Origin: a virus
Taxonomy: Duplodnaviria; Heunggongvirae; Uroviricota; Caudoviricetes
DNA length: 15,035 nucleotides
Direction: 5' to 3' (one strand)
Virus record (IMG/VR): IMGVR_UViG_2565956611_000003
Coordinates: 1-15,035 of that record
Each line of letters opens with the position of its first letter. Position 1 is the first letter of the stretch. Under the pieces are notes generated by a model. That model saw only the letters and a program-made list of their open reading frames with translations, was not told the DNA's origin and did not search any database. Below, piece after piece: positions 3,079 through 12,892 of this stretch. The position numbers were made by a program, and so were the translations under genes.

Positions 3079-3129
3079 GTTCTTTTTTCGCCCAATTATT
3101 TTCAAAAAAATTACCGTGCACAAAAATTT

Positions 3130-3189
3130 GAGGGGGCGGTCGGTGTCCGGCAGGGACGGTTTCGTCCTGAAAACCACCCCCACCCCCTC
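3130..3189. other. Candidate cos / packaging recognition region between HNH and terS
   Basis: 288-bp non-coding gap (3079-3366). GAGGGGG (3130-3136) and CCCCCTC (3183-3189) flank a GGACG-GTTT-CGTCC hairpin (3154-3167), with C5 tracts at 3176-3187. HNH-cos-terS-terL is the usual layout of HK97-like cos phages. Confidence 0.35.
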
Positions 3190-3366
3190 TGACGGCCTCA
3201 CCAGCGATTGCGAAAACATTCCATGACCTCGCGGTCACGGTCGGTTAATCGCTTCGCTGTGGTGCGTTTTGTGCGCCCTGTCCTGTTGGCTTTGTGCTCT
3301 GTCTCCTGTGTCTTCCATGTGTCACGCTGCCTTATCAGTCCACGTATCAGCCTGGTTTGCTCCTGT

Positions 3367-3807: not shown

Positions 3808-4109
3808 CAGTACACCCCTACGTCACGATAAACTGACCAGAGCGCAGAAATAGCCATAGGCAGTTCCGAGTGCTCCACTGGTGAAACCGCTTCCCGGTTC
3901 TCGTACAGGAAAGCGATGTACATCAGGCAACCAACACGCATTGCCGGGGTAAATTCCAGCCCGTCTTCAAAACGTTTCCCGATATGCTTCTGGCAGGCTT
4001 CCAGCGCCGCATCGGTATACATTTTCAGAAGTTCGCCTTCACCGGATAAATCATCATCAAGTCGAAGATGTGCCCTGACTTCATCAGGTGTAATTCTGGC
4101 TTCACTCAT
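3807..4109 (-). CDS. Head-tail connector / adaptor protein, gp6-like
   Basis: 101 aa from ATG 4109 (MSEARITPDEVRAHLRLDDD...LLKMYTDAALEACQKHIGKRF...), matching the gp6-like head-tail connector pattern. SD GGGAGA lies in the portal 3' end; 8-nt overlap with the portal stop. The ORF-track GTG start at 4196 would sit deep inside the portal gene. Confidence 0.75.
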   Translation of the reverse strand: MSEARITPDEVRAHLRLDDDLSGEGELLKMYTDAALEACQKHIGKRFEDGLEFTPAMRVGCLMYIAFLYENREAVSPVEHSELPMAISALWSVYRDVGVY

Positions 4110-5316
4110 CTTTTCTCCCTTTAATTTCCACAGTCTGTTTCCATGCCTGGCTGAACTCATCACCACCTTCACGCGGCGGCATACCCTCACGCTCACGGGC
4201 TTCGTTCGGATTCATGATCCCGTTCTTAATCCCTTTCTCATACGTGGCATAACGTTCGGTGGGTGTGGCGCGTAATAAATCGGCTGAATCAAACTCAACC
4301 AGATAACGGGTACCAGGTACGGGAGAAGCCACCAGCAAAGCGGCCTTGATTTGCTGTTCGAAGTTCGCCAGCCACGGGCGCATTGTCATGGTCAGAAACG
4401 CGCGGCTTGCCTCGCTGAAATTGCTGTAGGTGCTGTTGCTGTATTCCTGCAGAAAAATAGGCGATACGTTGAACATGCGGGCGATGTCTTCAATGGAGAA
4501 GCGACGGGAGGCCAGCCATTCCGCATCCTGGTTACTCATTCCCAGTTGCCTGTAATCCATGCCCCCTTCAAGGATTGGCGTTTTTCCGGCATTTTTCGCC
4601 CCCTTGTAGCGTTCCAGAGCATCCAATGCCTGTTTACCTTTCACGCCGTCCAGCCATTCGCCTGACGTGATAATCCCTGCCGCCATCATGCCATCTTTCA
4701 TAATGCTGGCTCCGTGACGCTGTTGAGCAAGGCCAAGCCCCAGCGCCTCACGGCAAATCGTGACGGGGGAACGCCCCAGAAAGCCATCATCCGAGGCATA
4801 GCGGAGATGCAAAACTTCTTCCTGTAAATACGTGCGCACCGTTCCTGTACAGGGTTCGGTGATGGTATAGCGGTATTTGTGTGCGCCTGTGCGTTCCGGT
4901 ACAACACACCCCGGCGCATAAGGATGAAGTGATTTTGGCTGCCCGTCCTGCCCCCACTCAATAACCGCATAGGCGTTACCGTTCAGCAGGCAGTGACGCA
5001 TCATTGTGCGTTTAAACTGGTAAGGTGTCTGGCACGAATTAGGCTGCTCATTCAGCAGAATATCTACTGGGTGACTGTCCAGCCATTCCCGCGCCTCCCT
5101 GCCCTTGTCATTACGTACCAGATACAGATAACACGGCATCGTGGCCACCGCCTCAGCGATGACAGAAACCGCATTCATCACTGCAGGCAATGATTCAGCC
5201 GTCCCGGCAGAAACATATTCTCCGGATCCGGTATTCGGTACGCCGGACAGCGCCAGAAAATCATCAATGGACAGGTTACGCTGCTCGCTTTTTTTACGAC
5301 TAAAAGGCCACCACAT
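4102..5316 (-). CDS. Portal protein, HK97 family
   Basis: 405 aa from ATG 5316 (MWWPFSRKKSEQRNLSIDDFLAL...), 1 nt after the protease stop. Size and position between protease and connector fit a portal. The ORF-track TTG start at 5406 would overlap the protease gene by about 90 nt. Confidence 0.85.
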   Translation of the reverse strand: MWWPFSRKKSEQRNLSIDDFLALSGVPNTGSGEYVSAGTAESLPAVMNAVSVIAEAVATMPCYLYLVRNDKGREAREWLDSHPVDILLNEQPNSCQTPYQFKRTMMRHCLLNGNAYAVIEWGQDGQPKSLHPYAPGCVVPERTGAHKYRYTITEPCTGTVRTYLQEEVLHLRYASDDGFLGRSPVTICREALGLGLAQQRHGASIMKDGMMAAGIITSGEWLDGVKGKQALDALERYKGAKNAGKTPILEGGMDYRQLGMSNQDAEWLASRRFSIEDIARMFNVSPIFLQEYSNSTYSNFSEASRAFLTMTMRPWLANFEQQIKAALLVASPVPGTRYLVEFDSADLLRATPTERYATYEKGIKNGIMNPNEAREREGMPPREGGDEFSQAWKQTVEIKGRKDE

Positions 5317-5317
5317 A

Positions 5318-5878
5318 TCACAACCCCGCCAGCTCAGACCAGCGATGACGATTATTTCCTGTCGGACGTAATTCAGGGTGCTGTGCAAACAACGAACGGT
5401 GGGCAATCTCCACGCCAGATTCTGGATAAGCAGGCATCGACGTTATTGTGATTTCACGGAGTTCAGCGGCGGTTACGGTACGCAGATACGGTTTTTGCGC
5501 GATACTCCACTCCTCGCATAATGCGCGAAAACCAAAGCTCATTCCTGTAATGTCGCCACGCTCCACCAGCGTAAGCACATCTTTTCCAAGCTGGGTATCC
5601 GGCGGTGTCAGTTCAAAACGTAACCCGGTGTTATCCTCAGTCAGTACCAGAGTGCCGGATTTGGTGCGCCCCAGCAGTTGGGTATAGTCATGCTCATACA
5701 GGCAGCGCACATCATTACCCGTCGCCAGATAGTCAGCAAAAGCCCCCGGCGTGAACTGTTCGCGGAATTCGTCCCAGATAATTTCTGAAAGGCTGTTCCA
5801 GCGAACGGCATACCCCACCAGCTTTTTATTGCTGGCGGTCAGTTCAGATGTGCGGATTTCAAAATCGGTGTTTTTCAT
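5318..5878 (-). CDS. Prohead maturation protease, HK97 family (S78-type)
   Basis: 186 aa with VGYAVRWN...H...ITGMSFGF motifs typical of HK97 prohead proteases. ATG at 5878 with GGAG 8 nt upstream. Confidence 0.85.
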   Translation of the reverse strand: MKNTDFEIRTSELTASNKKLVGYAVRWNSLSEIIWDEFREQFTPGAFADYLATGNDVRCLYEHDYTQLLGRTKSGTLVLTEDNTGLRFELTPPDTQLGKDVLTLVERGDITGMSFGFRALCEEWSIAQKPYLRTVTAAELREITITSMPAYPESGVEIAHRSLFAQHPELRPTGNNRHRWSELAGL

Positions 5879-5897
5879 CGGTGTACTCCATAAAGCT

Positions 5898-5920
5898 GAA
5901 AAAGGAGGCCGCAGCCTCCT
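5898..5920 (-). terminator. Intra-operon stem-loop plus U-run (attenuator-like) between capsid and protease genes
   Basis: On the minus-strand transcript, 7-bp stem AGGAGGC/GCCTCCT with 4-nt loop, followed by UUUUU, in the 54-nt gap after the capsid stop (5933) and before the protease start (5878). Confidence 0.5.
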
Positions 5921-5932
5921 CCTTACTCATGA

Positions 5933-7102
5933 CTAGCCAGCTTTCATTTCCAGAATTTTGATGGCGTTTGAATCCACCACACCACCGCCCAGATATTTAT
6001 CCGTGTGGACCTTGTAGAATCCGGGTTCAGTAATGTTGTCCGGTCGGGTGCGAATCCCTGTTACATGATCAACGATGAAATAACCACGACTGAAATCGCC
6101 AACCGCTAGCGGTGCTTTTCCTGCGCCGATGTCCGGCATGGACTCCAGGCAGTAAACAGGACGACCAAGCAACATATCCGGCGCACCTTCTTTAAGGCTG
6201 TCGCGCCAGATATAATCGCCGTTCTCATTTTTCAGCTTCTGTAGTGTCCCTGCCGTGCCCGAGTTCATCACCCAGACGGCATTTTTGCGGTATTTCGCTT
6301 TCAGCTTGTAGAGAATGTCGATCAGTTCGTCCGCTGTAATGGCGGTTCCACTTGCCGCTACTATTTTTTCAATGGTGCCAAAAGCGCGGGTTTTGTCACT
6401 GGTCGCCGCACGGGTGTAAGCCATGAAGCCTTTCGGCTTGCCGTTACCGTCGCCATTAACAAAATCATCCTCTTCGGTGCTGGCGAACGTGTCGGCAATT
6501 TCGGAGGATAACCAGCCCAGAATATCCACCTCTGAAAAATCCAGGATTTCCTGCGTGGTTTTCGGGTAGGCGTAGATCGGATTCAACTTGATGGTTACGC
6601 GTTCAATTTTCGGGGTGTTGGTTTCACTGCGTGCGCTGCCTTCTGTGCCTCGTCCTACAGTTGCGCCGCCAGTGGAAACCAGTTTCTGAAACTCATTTGA
6701 TTTTGCGGTCTTCACGGTCGCGATCACGCGCATAACACTGTCATCCTGTAGCTGGCGCATGACTTCGCGATCAAGCTCAGGAATTACGGTATATCCGCCA
6801 TCCCTGCCGCTGTCAGTGCTGGTGGACAGTGATCGCACATCTCCGGTTACGATGTAGTTACGCAATTCATCAGATGATAATTTCTGGATGCCCGTTCCTG
6901 GCTTGCTGCGTTCTTCATCAGCCACAGACTCGAGGCGGGAAATTTCTGTGTCGAGGGCATCAGCTTTTGCACGCAGTTCATCAAACTGTTTGCCTTCTTC
7001 AGCGTTCAGACTACGGTTTTCACTGTCGGCTTTTTCCAGCAGGGATCGCATCTGGTTTTTCAGGGCGTTTTTTTGCTGGCGGAGTTCGATTAATTTCTTC
7101 AT
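5933..7102 (-). CDS. Major capsid protein, HK97 family
   Basis: 389 aa with an N-terminal coiled-coil delta-like region (MKKLIELRQQKNALKNQMRSLLEKA...) and a body containing DFVNGDGNGKPKGF, typical of the HK97 fold. First gene of the head operon. Confidence 0.9.
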   Translation of the reverse strand: MKKLIELRQQKNALKNQMRSLLEKADSENRSLNAEEGKQFDELRAKADALDTEISRLESVADEERSKPGTGIQKLSSDELRNYIVTGDVRSLSTSTDSGRDGGYTVIPELDREVMRQLQDDSVMRVIATVKTAKSNEFQKLVSTGGATVGRGTEGSARSETNTPKIERVTIKLNPIYAYPKTTQEILDFSEVDILGWLSSEIADTFASTEEDDFVNGDGNGKPKGFMAYTRAATSDKTRAFGTIEKIVAASGTAITADELIDILYKLKAKYRKNAVWVMNSGTAGTLQKLKNENGDYIWRDSLKEGAPDMLLGRPVYCLESMPDIGAGKAPLAVGDFSRGYFIVDHVTGIRTRPDNITEPGFYKVHTDKYLGGGVVDSNAIKILEMKAG

Positions 7103-7388
7103 GAAGGTTTTCTCGTATTGGTTAAGATTCAGGACGTGAAACCAACACGGGGGGAGCGCCGCCCGACACTCTCGGCATCTCGCAGATCAACCCGGCATCG
7201 CGCAGGGGGTCAGGCGGCATTGTGGCGGCTCACGTCTGAGTGCCACGCTCCAACATATACATAAAAATCAGTATGTAAACACCTGTCAGTCAGACCGAAC
7301 AACCACGAAAGAACACGAACAAATAATTTACAAAAGAAGTAAACCATGGCCTATTATTGCTGTCTCTGACTACAACAAAGGACGCATC

Positions 7389-7895
7389 ATGAATTTAAGC
7401 GCAATGGTATATCCTGATACTTTCATAATTAATGGCGAATCATTCAGAGGTAAAAGAAACGCAAAAGAAAACAAGGTATTAATTCCATATACAAATGAAC
7501 CGGAAGTAACTATTGGTCAACACATTATCCAGCGTGTCGGTAAAAACGAGATAAATCTAAAAATTATAGATATGAAGTTGCTTCCCAATGGAACCCGCAG
7601 ACAGGGAACCAATCATCCAAATATGTTGACTCTCTATATTGAAAATATCACGGGAAATGAACATATGACGCCAACTAAAAGTAATACATTTAACATTGGT
7701 TCAATTAGTGGTGATCAAGTGCAGATAGGTGAGCATAACCATATGCTGGTAAACATCAGCATCACTGAACTGGTTGAAAAAGTCGCTAAATCGGGGGATG
7801 TACAAGCCAAATCAGTATTAAAGCAGTTACTGGAAAACAGTACCGTTGCCAGCATTGTTGGGGCTGGCGCAAGTGCCCTAATAGGCTTACTGTAA
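7389..7895 (+). CDS. Hypothetical protein (168 aa), AT-rich cargo gene with hydrophobic C-terminal segment
   Basis: ATG 7389 with AAGGA 7 nt upstream. Visibly AT-rich compared with flanking genes. The C-terminus (STVASIVGAGASALIGLL) is hydrophobic and Gly/Ala-rich. Stand-alone plus-strand gene followed by a strong terminator. No family recognised. Confidence 0.6.
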   Translation: MNLSAMVYPDTFIINGESFRGKRNAKENKVLIPYTNEPEVTIGQHIIQRVGKNEINLKIIDMKLLPNGTRRQGTNHPNMLTLYIENITGNEHMTPTKSNTFNIGSISGDQVQIGEHNHMLVNISITELVEKVAKSGDVQAKSVLKQLLENSTVASIVGAGASALIGLL

Positions 7896-7932
7896 AAAAA
7901 TGGCCTGGATTTTACCAGGCCTTTATTATTTT
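7896..7932. terminator. Bidirectional rho-independent terminator
   Basis: GGCCTGG (7902-7908), loop ATTTTA, CCAGGCC (7915-7921), flanked by A8 upstream and TTTATTATTTT downstream, so U-runs on both strands. Sits between the convergent 168-aa gene and the minus-strand replication-module operon. Confidence 0.7.
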
Positions 7933-8227
7933 ACCGTTTCACGGGATCTCGCATTCTGCGCCTTATTTTCCACAGATATTCGATCATCGCTTCCACCTGC
8001 TCACGGTTGGTTGCGAAAATTTCCCCGGTCAGTGAGCTACGCAGAAAATCATGATGATCCACAACAAACAACGCATCGGAAGAAAGCAGACGGCGATATT
8101 TTTTTGCTGTCATGGTTTCCAGATCATCAAAATCATGAAACTTTTTATGTTGCTGGACTTCTTCAAATGTCACTGGAATGTCCCCTCTGTTGTCGCTAAA
8201 ACGGTATGTTGTCCCCGTACGGATCAT
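7931..8227 (-). CDS. Hypothetical protein (98 aa)
   Basis: Protein-like composition; last gene of the minus operon running from the iteron region; overlaps the SSB 3' end. The start is ambiguous (ATG 8227 or ATG 8113) and no strong SD is seen. Confidence 0.45.
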   Translation of the reverse strand: MIRTGTTYRFSDNRGDIPVTFEEVQQHKKFHDFDDLETMTAKKYRRLLSSDALFVVDHHDFLRSSLTGEIFATNREQVEAMIEYLWKIRRRMRDPVKR

Positions 8228-12635: not shown

Positions 12636-12860
12636 TTACGCTGCCTTACCTGAATTAACGCGGTCACGGCTTTGCACCCAGTCCATAACTTCGGAAAGCA
12701 ACCAGCCTACAGAACGCCCCCCAAGATTACGGCGAGACGGAAAGCCCCCTTTCTTCTCCAGTTCGTAGCGTGTAGTACGGCTGACGCCTGTTAACTTACG
12801 ACATTCATCCTCACGAATTACGCGATCTGTTAGTGATTGAAATTGTGTATTTTGATTCAT
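12636..12860 (-). CDS. alpA: AlpA-family prophage transcriptional regulator (small HTH excisionase-like activator)
   Basis: 74 aa (MNQNTQFQSLTDRVIREDECRKLTGVSRTTRYELEKKGGFPSRRNLGGRSVGWLLSEVMDWVQ...) matches the AlpA/CP4-57 regulator pattern. ATG at 12860 with GAGGG SD. Position near the integrase is typical. Confidence 0.85.
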   Translation of the reverse strand: MNQNTQFQSLTDRVIREDECRKLTGVSRTTRYELEKKGGFPSRRNLGGRSVGWLLSEVMDWVQSRDRVNSGKAA

Positions 12861-12892
12861 AAAAACACCCTCGAACGTAACCGAACAAGGGC

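Follow-up and report, generated by a model that had tools for sequence, protein, structure and literature searches.

A conserved, probably structured RNA leader precedes the capsid operon of a capsid-forming phage satellite and may gate its ribosome-binding site

The GC-rich block at 7140–7260 of the 15,035-nucleotide viral DNA analyzed here (the window) is very probably the core of a transcribed, structured, cis-acting leader of ~145 nt (7246–7103, minus strand), as judged from comparative alignments and folding models. The models further lead us to favor, with somewhat better than even confidence, the reading that this 5′ leader RNA controls expression of the capsid operon after transcription initiation, by gating of the ribosome-binding site; the specific mechanism of gating that we set out below is put forward more tentatively. 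The first-pass annotation had described the block as a GC-rich leader of the capsid operon, with a 13-nt direct repeat that would bind an activator of a promoter devoid of good sigma70 elements. The base composition (GC fraction 0.62–0.70 over 7120–7260, compared with 0.32–0.45 in the flanks) and the assignment as the leader of a separate capsid operon both stand, whereas the missing sigma70 promoter and the role of the repeats as activator sites do not. The features discussed are collected in Table 1.

[quoted passage not shown] They are 10–18 kb in length and comprise an integrase, regulation and replication modules and a packaging module of their own, without tail or lysis genes (bioRxiv 10.1101/2025.02.11.637232). 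The window is identical to the E. coli SMS-3-5 locus between thiM and rcnR (RefSeq annotation), in which the annotation shows each of these modules, with int, alpA, primase and SSB genes followed by capsid, protease, portal, connector, HNH, TerS and TerL genes, and with tail and lysis genes absent; by gene content, the island as a whole is a cf-PICI. Its AlpA is a 74-residue Phage_AlpA/Xis-like protein (Pfam PF05930, 4.8e-16), and Pfam and PHROGs searches with the neighboring small proteins gave no function. Of 5426 complete E. coli genomes, 168 retain the segment 7000–7335, with identities as low as 71%, and comparison among these genomes marks the DNA past ~7336 as variable cargo. The bidirectional terminator in the window (found by a terminator scan) ends the replication operon on the minus strand and sets the plus-strand cargo gene apart from the capsid promoter region, and in relatives an intrinsic terminator lies directly upstream of the conserved promoter region; the capsid operon thus forms a transcription unit of its own. 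The packaging operon is ~6.5 kb long, and the scan predicted no strong intrinsic terminator inside it in the window. The GC-rich block was also considered as a cos site, which should coincide with the physical ends of packaged DNA and adjoin terS as in HK97, and rejected: in the linear record LR881103, obtained from induced particles, the first base lies 22 nt ahead of terS and the last within a G-rich element equivalent to window ~3160–3195, with the leader internal at 12.1–12.3 kb (these ends may not be true termini).

Table 1. Features of the capsid-operon leader and its surroundings (window coordinates).
Feature	Position	Strand	Description
HK97-type major capsid gene	5933–7102	−	First gene of packaging operon; RefSeq annotation; Pfam PF05065 on homologues
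Stem-loop 3 (SL3)	7106–7143	−	5′ arm GGUUUCACGU (7143–7134) with ACG-A-GAAAACC (7116–7106)
Pyrimidine-rich tract	7144–7157	−	GCUCCCCCCGUGUU; C6 run is the complement of the G6 run at 7149–7154
Stem-loop 2 (SL2)	7158–7218	−	Base helix GCCGCCUGAC (7218–7209) with GUCGGGCGGC (7167–7158); inverted repeat I1
Stem-loop 1 (SL1)	7222–7246	−	Invariant 25-mer GUGGCACUCAGACGUGAGCCGCCAC at predicted transcript 5′ end
Sigma70-like promoter of capsid/packaging operon	7252–7279	−	−35 TTTACA (7279–7274), 16-nt spacer, −10 TATGTT (7257–7252)
Three 10-nt phased units	7293–7322	−	TTGTTCGTGT / TCTTTCGTGG / TTGTTCGGTC; between box and −35; possible regulator sites
Upstream box	7319–7332	−	TGTAAATTATTTGT; nearly invariant; candidate activator DNA site or promoter-upstream element
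Bidirectional intrinsic terminator	7902–7921	both	7-bp stem with six GC pairs; T-runs on either strand

The promoter that the first-pass annotation had not seen lies on the capsid strand, upstream of the block. It matches the consensus at nine of 12 positions, has A2 and T6 of the −10 hexamer and a spacer within the 16–18 nt of sigma70 sites, and was one of only six such sites in a promoter scan of the 15 kb. Of 142 distinct relatives, 141 have a TAnnnT hexamer in the corresponding place; the −35 is TTTAC[AT] in 70 of them and poor (TTTTCT) in about half. From the consensus match, transcription is predicted to start most likely at about 7246–7244, and, as the promoter lies upstream of it, the GC-rich block would be transcribed. 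Further upstream, the box is invariant in alignment A1, has an offset of 86 or 87 nt from the leader hairpin in 136 of the 142 distinct upstream regions, is kept in the sister lineage L073 despite a different leader, and has no second copy in the window. The phased units that follow it include TTGTTCG at 7316–7322 and 7296–7302, and a comparable GTTCG-N5-GTTCG arrangement is present upstream of alpA. Several known types of site were considered and rejected: a sigma54 promoter (the TGGCAC in the 25-mer has no GC at −12 spacing), LexA, CRP, TyrR, IHF and RfaH-ops sites (no match to the box or leader was convincing on reading), and the P2-type TGT-N12-ACA dyad (a single chance match in the window, not conserved).

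Over 240 loci, in hosts that range from Escherichia to Proteus and Erwinia, carry the leader. Its first hairpin, SL1, is exact in 235 of 244 pattern matches among the loci examined and is carried by 77 of 80 IMG/VR capsid loci. Exact copies occur at 36 loci of 36 genome records across Enterobacterales, in genera that include Erwinia, Pantoea, Serratia, Proteus, Providencia, Klebsiella and Pectobacterium; every copy precedes the capsid ATG, and the motif has no other occurrence in the island. A lineage with the same gene order and capsids 46% identical has the same layout, in which a short hairpin and a long, covarying one are followed by a pyrimidine tract and by a hairpin that covers the SD/AUG; covariance model R1 matches it weakly (E = 3e-5 to 5e-3). 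In the closest sister lineages the leader is missing, or is replaced by a different leader that has an intrinsic terminator directly before the ATG; neither a third capsid lineage (P0127) nor a metagenome scan yielded new leaders. The whole window has no match in Rfam 15 at gathering thresholds, and relaxing the search to E up to 10 over 7050–7400 returned only a spurious opposite-strand snoRNA (22 bits, compared with a gathering score of 55). A literature search for the 25-mer core found no paper or description of the leader.

Support for an RNA fold comes in part from SL2, for which pairing is conserved and sequence is not. RNAalifold recovers both SL1 and SL2, with seven of eight SL2 pairs compensatory, and among 100 distinct leaders (related sequences, not independent ones) all 11 SL2 pairs have compensatory changes and 95.8% of cells are paired. 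When the 100 leaders are aligned to R1, 97.9% of all cells are paired, compared with 38–48% when the partners are slid, and none of 500 shuffles reached all five structure measures. About 70 cells in SL2 are G-U pairs, which would be A-C mismatches on the opposite strand, and the structure therefore fits only minus-strand RNA; consistent with this strand, the fold z score is −3.05, compared with −2.04 for the plus strand. SL3 is 98.3% paired, with wobble changes only and no double compensations in the 100 leaders; its 3′ arm overlaps a weak Shine–Dalgarno region (GAGA, −12 to −9), and GGTTTCACGTC within the SL3 region is invariant in the leader alignment. The GGCGGC-type motifs pointed out in the first-pass annotation (GGCGGCAT at 7213–7220 and GGCGGCTC at 7224–7231) and its G6 run are all present; the motifs are stem arms and the run, CCCCCC in the capsid sense, is the complement of the C-tract. 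Across the 100 leaders the tract after SL2 is 50% C, 29% U and 8% G, and it is U-rich in the manner of a terminator (at least five U in the first 9 nt) in only ~7. No intrinsic-terminator attenuator was found in the window, where SL2 is followed by GCUCCCCCC and the terminator scan of 7103–7250 is empty, and the search for coding potential in the leader gave only short, unconserved ORFs, with leader length varying. A boxA-like UCUUAAC in the SL3 loop was considered and discarded, being one base short and insufficiently conserved.

The 13-nt repeat that had drawn attention to the block is real: CGGCATCTCGCAG (7173–7185) and CGGCATCGCGCAG (7193–7205) agree at 12 of 13 positions with a start-to-start distance of 20, and read CTGCGCGATGCCG and CTGCGAGATGCCG in the sense of the minus-strand capsid gene. 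It is also beyond chance: when the block or the entire intergenic region is shuffled with its dinucleotides preserved, only 6–7 of 1000 shuffles give a 13-mer pair (≤1 mismatch, within 60 nt). Both copies lie in the variable tip of SL2 (7208–7168) and are confined to an E. coli sub-lineage (13 of 100 distinct leaders), where they represent a tandem duplication, 20 nt long and since diverged, of a mini-hairpin unit (CUGCGAGAUGCAG) of which 32/100 other leaders have a single copy; five of the 13 repeat-bearing sequences have an unmatched substitution in one copy, and no convincing third copy exists elsewhere in the window, with none near alpA. On the comparative evidence, the repeats are a lineage-specific duplication in a variable tip, not a conserved functional core. 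The original proposal held that the repeats, at two-turn spacing, bind AlpA or a helper late activator that switches on a sigma70-poor late promoter. Their statistical excess, the need for AlpA in cf-PICI induction (bioRxiv 10.1101/2022.09.08.507074), and the poor −35 in about half of the relatives with the conserved box and phased GTTCG-like repeats upstream all speak for some such activation, but the reported repeats stand 47–79 nt downstream of the conserved −10, within the transcribed leader, at the tip of a covarying stem, and are missing from most relatives, with unmatched substitutions and no extra copy near alpA or elsewhere. The proposal is largely refuted by these comparative data, and we consider it highly improbable. 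An AlpA-type activator could still act at the capsid promoter via the other, upstream repeats, which is conceivable because of that same combination of weak −35, box and 10-bp phasing; the association between AlpA clade and upstream-repeat type was not clean, as ~8 of 22 clade-B islands have the other repeat type. The original finding thus needs a correction: its conspicuous repeats are what a duplication in a dispensable stem tip has left behind, not a regulatory site.

In contrast to the tip of SL2, SL1 barely varies. The nine variants among the 244 pattern matches carry the compensatory changes G4A + C22U and A10C + U15G. The sequence UCACGUC at 7139–7133, in SL3, is complementary to GACGUGA in the SL1 loop; this alternative helix is 96.5% paired, with pair 15/141 being UA in 93 leaders and GC in seven. 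In the only variant lineage, the A10C, U15G and downstream A-to-C changes occur together, so that the SL1 inner stem and the long-range helix are both kept. Two different positions thus covary with position 15 of SL1, which hints at alternative or pseudoknot pairing, although the covariation comes from a single clade and represents one or two evolutionary events. Concerted TGAG to GGAG changes in three protein-recognized DNA half-sites would explain the SL1 and long-range covariation equally well. A search of IMG/VR for further covariation, in the form of G or U at the covarying SL3 position, found no such lineage, its single match being coding sequence. That no loop or bulge base of SL1 varies indicates that some macromolecule recognizes this sequence specifically, a point that weighs against the favored reading.

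These elements can be combined into a model for ribosome-binding-site gating. Transcription would start at ~7246 from the conserved sigma70-type promoter, and the leader would act after initiation, its RNA folding into the 25-nt SL1 at the 5′ end, SL2, a single-stranded C/U tract and SL3. In the proposed ground state the ribosome-binding site is hidden by SL3, to which base pairs between AUGAARAAA and the pyrimidine tract are often added. The site would open once the SL1 loop (AGACGUGA) pairs with the SL3 5′ arm (UCACGUCU), so that translation could proceed and the long operon would be spared Rho-dependent polarity arising at the C-rich tract. Candidate triggers for the switch are an island, helper-phage or host protein, or folding kinetics. 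The state with all three stem-loops is the predicted minimum-energy fold in 80 of 100 leaders, and the predicted unpaired probability over positions −14 to +5 is 0.40, compared with 0.56 with shuffled leaders (lower in 39 of 40), a modest occlusion effect in related, non-independent sequences. Occlusion is weakest for the window sequence, because the minimum-energy fold of its sub-lineage forms a different 3′ hairpin (GUGUUGGUU/AACCAAUAC) that leaves the ribosome-binding site open. More speculatively, the leader could represent an undescribed class of RNA switch specific to capsid-forming satellites, in which a 25-nt hairpin toggles between its inner stem and a pseudoknot-like helix with the ribosome-binding-site hairpin in response to a specific signal; such a breadth of claim we regard as possible at best.

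Three other explanations of the leader were weighed against gating. Antitermination, in which nascent SL1 and SL2 either modify RNA polymerase directly, as HK022 put does, or load an antiterminator protein for read-through of Rho-dependent or intrinsic stops along the packaging operon, would suit the position of two stem-loops directly behind the predicted start; in broad outline this is how putL is built, whose two stem-loops occupy ~70 nt beginning at +3, close behind PL (PMC9378689). An SL1 invariant at every base would fit contact with conserved host machinery, the element spans hosts from Proteus to Escherichia, and a long, untranslated, C-rich leader would otherwise invite Rho. The terminator abutting the capsid ATG in L073, and a terminator between the upstream box and the −10 in another subfamily, indicate that terminator read-through is part of regulation in the group, and the missing or terminator-bearing leaders of the sister lineages mean that the logic of the group could be antitermination rather than translational gating. 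Against this stand the lack of a strong predicted intrinsic terminator in the packaging operon of the window, the failure of R1 to find anything in the HK022 immunity region expected to hold putL and putR (22–32 kb, E up to 1), and the empty Rfam searches. Loading of a Q- or AlpA-type protein is likewise opposed by the sequence, as no TAnnnT or NAnnnT pause element of −10 type is conserved in the 25-mer (+1 to +25; CACAAT occurs only in the sub-lineage of the window), the spacer TACTGATTTTTATGTA lacks GGGACG, the element of P. aeruginosa AlpA, and that AlpA is much larger than the one here. SL3 and the complementarity between the SL1 loop and SL3 are also left unexplained, and we judge antitermination to be unlikely overall.

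Slightly less probable again is an operator acting at the level of DNA, in which the quasi-palindromic 25-mer and its inverted copy 100 bp downstream (AGACGTGA/TCACGTCT) bind a repressor or activator, possibly with looping, and SL2 is incidental or separate. Invariance that reaches into the loop and bulge is seen more typically where a protein recognizes the sequence than in a simple hairpin, the 25-mer overlaps the predicted start site (a classic place for an operator), and in the variant lineage TGAG becomes GGAG at all three copies and GTGGC/GCCAC becomes GTGAC/GTCAC symmetrically, as a change of protein specificity would also produce. However, no DNA-binding protein common to all leader-bearing islands was found, and the replication modules, small upstream proteins and AlpA clades vary among islands with identical 25-mers; the motif is nowhere else in the island, and SL2, which separates the two sites, owes its conservation purely to compensatory changes that include G-U pairs, an RNA signature on this strand. 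About as improbable as the operator is a passive mRNA element, either a processing site or a structured leader whose 5′ hairpin stabilizes the operon mRNA against RNase E and 5′-end-dependent decay. A 5′-terminal hairpin protects mRNAs such as ompA, the nucleotide predicted to come first in the transcript is also the first of SL1, a capsid message has to be plentiful, and SL2 would need only to be a stem; yet such an element requires neither 25 invariant bases nor a loop complementary to a site 100 nt downstream, nor a hairpin over the ribosome-binding site. Ribosome-binding-site gating thus remains the reading that we prefer.

The leader probably controls when capsids are made. It forms a strictly conserved control region between a variable cargo (“immune system”) hotspot and the packaging operon, and is the obvious candidate for timing control, as the timing and dosing of capsid production are not addressed in the cf-PICI papers bioRxiv 10.1101/2022.09.08.507074 and 10.1101/2025.02.11.637232. 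If the RNA-switch reading is true, a protein (from satellite, helper or host) or metabolite signal would time capsid production independently of the AlpA-driven early operon. The leader presents a small, defined experimental target, consisting of a 25-nt invariant hairpin, one alternative helix and one promoter, and its combined sequence and structure provide a signature with which genomes can be searched for cf-PICIs and for the edge of the cargo hotspot. Engineered satellite “drones” could also make use of it as a regulatory part.

Among known systems, the Ogr/Delta late promoters of P2 and P4 share with the capsid promoter a satellite late operon, expression after helper induction and, in about half of the relatives, a weak −35; they differ in their TGT-N12-ACA dyad at −55, which is not conserved here (the chance match, near −47, is missing from the closest relatives), and no Ogr/Delta-like zinc-finger gene is annotated in the island. 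The loading sites of lambda Q, 21Q and P. aeruginosa AlpA resemble it in their constitutive-looking promoter, conserved initially transcribed region and late operon, and the island does encode an AlpA, but no ABE (GGGACG) or QBE-like site is present between −35 and −10 here, no −10-like pause element is conserved, no terminator lies directly downstream in the window, and the DNA-contact residues of the P. aeruginosa protein extend up to residue 142. The HK022 putL and putR elements are non-coding and cis-acting, as the leader very probably is, have two stem-loops right after a phage-type promoter, where SL1 and SL2 are predicted to lie too, and, again like the leader, occur in elements related to enterobacterial phages of HK97/HK022 type (PMC9378689); in comparison, the leader is roughly double their length, adds a third hairpin, placed over the ribosome-binding site, and a variable SL2 tip, and its first hairpin is invariant whereas put sites differ mutually, with no match in sequence or structure. 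Translational riboregulators that hide a ribosome-binding site through alternative pairing, such as riboswitches and RNA thermometers, and leaders coupled to Rho-dependent attenuation (for example that of PMC5314796) differ in that no Rfam riboswitch or leader family matches and in that the site is only moderately occluded in prediction, and open in the sub-lineage of the window. What they share with the leader is a long 5′ UTR with mutually exclusive helices (predicted here), one of them over the SD/AUG, and an unstructured, C-rich and G-poor tract upstream of the ORF.

The 15-kb island of E. coli SMS-3-5 that lies between thiM and rcnR is identical to the window, and it has the organisation published for capsid-forming PICIs (cf-PICIs; bioRxiv 10.1101/2022.09.08.507074; 10.1101/2025.02.11.637232), with no tail or lysis genes in the island annotation. 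The minus-strand capsid gene and a divergent cargo gene stand 286 nt apart; the GC-rich block (GC 0.62-0.70 vs 0.32-0.45 in the flanks) lies in this gap, and its features must be interpreted on the minus strand. The first-pass annotation was right to call it the leader of the capsid operon, and wrong to find no good sigma70 promoter. A promoter scan identified a sigma70-like promoter by consensus match, one of six such sites in the 15 kb (shuffles give 19), and a TAnnnT hexamer stands at exactly the same position in 141 of 142 distinct related upstream regions. The -35 hexamer reads TTTAC[AT] in 70 of the 142, most others being of a poor TTTTCT type. The block thus lies downstream of the promoter, within the predicted transcript.

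Features of the capsid-operon leader and its surroundings
Feature	Position	Strand	Remarks
Integrase, DUF6387, AlpA, Icd-like, primase, SSB, small ORFs (in order)		-	
alpA	12636-12860	-	
Hairpin upstream of alpA	12858-12891	-	CCCUUG...CGAGGG + T-run
82-aa protein	7931-8179	-	phrog_1957; no Pfam match
Bidirectional terminator	7902-7921	both	terminator scan; closes replication operon
Cargo gene, function unassigned	7389-7895	+	168 aa; phrog_5789; no Pfam match; GC about 0.35; after small ORFs, before capsid
Cargo hotspot	7336-7900		left edge sharp at about 7336
Upstream box TGTAAATTATTTGT	7332-7319	-	nearly invariant in relatives
Sigma70-like promoter TTTACA-16-TATGTT	7279-7252	-	
Invariant 25-mer GTGGCACTCAGACGTGAGCCGCCAC (SL1)	7246-7222	-	
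Two GGCGGC motifs	within 7213-7231		SL1 3' arm and SL2 5' arm
SL2 tip	7208-7168	-	
13-nt repeats CGGCATCTCGCAG and CGGCATCGCGCAG	7173-7185 and 7193-7205		12/13; spacing 20
GATC (Dam) site	7186-7189		between the 13-nt copies
GCGCCGCCC	7157-7165		most of SL2 3' arm
G6 run	7149-7154		complement of C6 run
Capsid gene	5933-7102	-	first packaging gene
Prohead protease, portal, connector, HNH, TerS, TerL (in order)			after capsid
G-rich element GGCCGTCAGAGGGGGTGGGGGTGGTTTTCAGGAC...	~3079-3197	-	between post-HNH small ORF and terS; likely cos

Conservation of this region is extensive. Of 5426 complete E. coli genomes, 168 retain positions 7000-7335, at identities down to 71%, and an alignment of eight leaders revealed the invariant 25-mer. 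Exact copies were found at 36 loci in a collection with one genome per species, each time some 110-130 nt upstream of a capsid ATG, in Erwinia, Pantoea, Serratia, Rahnella, Proteus, Providencia, Klebsiella, Citrobacter, Enterobacter, Kosakonia and Pectobacterium, among others, and in 77 of 80 IMG/VR capsid loci. A phage collection gave just three matches: a 106-kb Klebsiella phage record, and two records of 3.8 kb (a fragment) and 16.5 kb (particle-derived) that resemble cf-PICI DNA more than complete phages. Five leader copies (L009, L023, L026, L030, L037) are present in one Erwinia tracheiphila genome (contig JBHMFM010000001.1); several are degenerate and look like decaying cf-PICIs, showing 13-nt box-leader deletions, loss of the -10, a GGTTTCACATC mutation or a frameshift at the start of the capsid gene. 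The distance from the upstream box to the leader is fixed at 86-87 nt in 136 of 142 distinct upstream regions; one subfamily carries a covarying intrinsic terminator between box and -10, and the other, to which the window belongs, has a good -35 in its place.

RNAalifold analysis of 39 distinct leaders predicted a stem-loop formed by the 25-mer (SL1) and a long stem (SL2), in which 7 of 8 pairs were compensated. When 100 distinct leaders were aligned with a covariance model (R1), 97.9% of cells were paired, vs 38-48% with partners slid by 1-3 columns; for all five measures, 0 of 500 shuffles did as well, and all 11 SL2 pairs showed changes on both sides. About 70 cells in SL2 are G-U, which would be A-C on the opposite strand, and the fold z-score is better for the minus strand (-3.05) than for the plus strand (-2.04); both results assign the structure to the capsid-sense RNA. 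The SL2 tip varies freely in length and sequence.

It is in this tip that the 13-nt repeats fall. They and the G6 and GGCGGC motifs are present as annotated, and only 6-7 of 1000 dinucleotide-preserving shuffles held a repeat of equal quality, so chance is not the source of the repeat. The two copies, present in 13 of 100 leaders, are a diverged 20-nt duplication of a mini-hairpin, CUGCGAGAUGCAG, which 32 other leaders have once. Substitutions in the repeats build up unmatched, in contrast to the 25-mer, which is identical in 235 of 244 pattern matches and shows paired changes only in the remaining nine. The G6 run reflects a C/U-rich tract that follows SL2 family-wide (50% C, 29% U, 8% G). 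The Dam site in the tip is confined to the window-type sub-lineage.

In SL3, invariant GGUUUCACGUC, 3' of the C-tract, pairs with ACG-GAAACC; the 3' arm of this hairpin reaches into the weak Shine-Dalgarno region (GGAA or GAGA, -12 to -9). UCACGUCU is complementary also to AGACGUGA, located in the loop and inner stem of SL1, and the helix between them is 96.5% paired. The sole variant lineage (GTGACACTCCGRCGGGAGCCGTCAC; 9 loci) changed G4A with C22U, A10C with U15G and GGTTTCACGTC to GGTTTCCCGTC, all together, so U15 covaries with both alternative partners; this fits a switch or an H-type pseudoknot, with one or two evolutionary events behind it. Minimum-energy folding gives SL1+SL2+SL3 in 80 of 100 leaders, often lengthened by pairs between the pyrimidine tract and AUGAARAAA, and the predicted unpaired probability from -14 to +5 is 0.40 vs 0.56 in shuffled leaders (lower in 39 of 40). 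The window's sub-lineage departs from this pattern: it favours a hairpin of its own, GUGUUGGUU/AACCAAUAC, which is predicted to leave the ribosome-binding site open.

Beyond the observed conservation, covariation, strand and position relative to a conserved promoter-like element and ribosome-binding site, we infer that transcription of the block begins near 7246 and that the block acts in cis, post-initiation. Our best guess, held tentatively, is that the leader would gate capsid translation, with SL3 competing against the SL1-loop helix as the gate, and that Rho polarity on the operon would be controlled as a result. Antitermination, put-like or factor-loaded, is unlikely in our estimation: an R1 search of the HK022 immunity region gave no match between the leader and put, the cis-acting antiterminator RNAs of HK022, and no Q/AlpA-type loading site is present in the leader region. 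An intrinsic attenuator is ruled out for the window leader by the terminator scan and the tract composition.

The covariation in the variant lineage could also be accounted for by concerted changes in three DNA half-sites. A DNA operator, against which the G-U pairs in SL2 speak, ranks slightly below antitermination, and passive mRNA stabilisation or processing we consider about as improbable as the operator. The reading of the repeats as activator sites is very hard to sustain, given their position downstream of the promoter in the SL2 tip, their presence in few leaders and their unmatched substitutions. Activator control of the promoter itself, via the -86 box and 10-bp phased GTTCG-like repeats (7322-7293), is possible and is compatible with each of these mechanisms.

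Several neighbouring elements deserve mention. Homology among islands ends at ~7336, beyond which cargo differs (DUF3775, two-gene cassettes, PerC-like, ProQ/FinO-like), in agreement with the variable region noted ahead of the packaging operon (bioRxiv 10.1101/2025.02.11.637232); the window's cargo gene is a candidate for a defence or accessory function. In many leader-bearing islands the replication operon ends with the gene for the 82-aa protein, while others have one for a 111-aa protein (phrog_7232), unrelated to it, at this place; the 82-aa protein is a possible regulator, though not universal. The loop of the alpA-upstream hairpin, which abuts the alpA ATG, holds GTTCG-N5-GTTCG. Related islands carry the same repeat there in opposite orientation (GCTCTCGAAC-N5-CGAACGAGAGC + T7), and in a second AlpA clade GCCTCCAC...GTGGAGGC covers the alpA Shine-Dalgarno; alpA itself thus looks attenuated or occluded. 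The phased repeat upstream of the capsid promoter is similar; its association with AlpA clade is imperfect. LR881103, a linear record derived from induced particles, has its end exactly at ...GGTTTTCAGGAC beside terS and restarts 22 nt before it, so the leader is probably not cos.

The leader is not coding and has no Rfam family match, a literature search found no occurrence of the 25-mer core, and the packaging-operon promoter is not discussed in the two cf-PICI papers (bioRxiv 10.1101/2022.09.08.507074; 10.1101/2025.02.11.637232). What precedes the capsid gene is a structured leader RNA, strongly conserved in the packaging operons of cf-PICIs and apparently undescribed so far. More distant lineages differ. 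The P0121 type (capsid 66% identical) is mostly leaderless; there the capsid gene, which carries a strong Shine-Dalgarno, comes directly after another ORF. L073 (IMG/VR UViG_2778261565_000016, 1200-1500; capsid 81% identical) keeps the upstream box ahead of an unrelated leader of ~240 nt, which has at its end, directly against the capsid ATG, a strong intrinsic terminator, GUCCUGGUG...CAUCAGGAC + U8; it also has a perfect 10-nt tandem, CGTGGTTGTT x2. The P0124 type (capsid 46% identical) shares the order replication-leader-capsid-protease-portal-HNH, and gives weak R1 matches (E = 3e-5 to 5e-3). Its leader has a like layout in unrelated sequence (short hairpin, long covarying hairpin, pyrimidine tract, tract-SD/AUG hairpin), so the architecture appears to predate the invariant sequence. 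HK97-type phages have the order portal-protease-capsid, opposite to the capsid-protease-portal of the window (4102-7102), where the first gene to follow the leader is the capsid gene; the 46%-identical lineage (L247) is arranged like the window.
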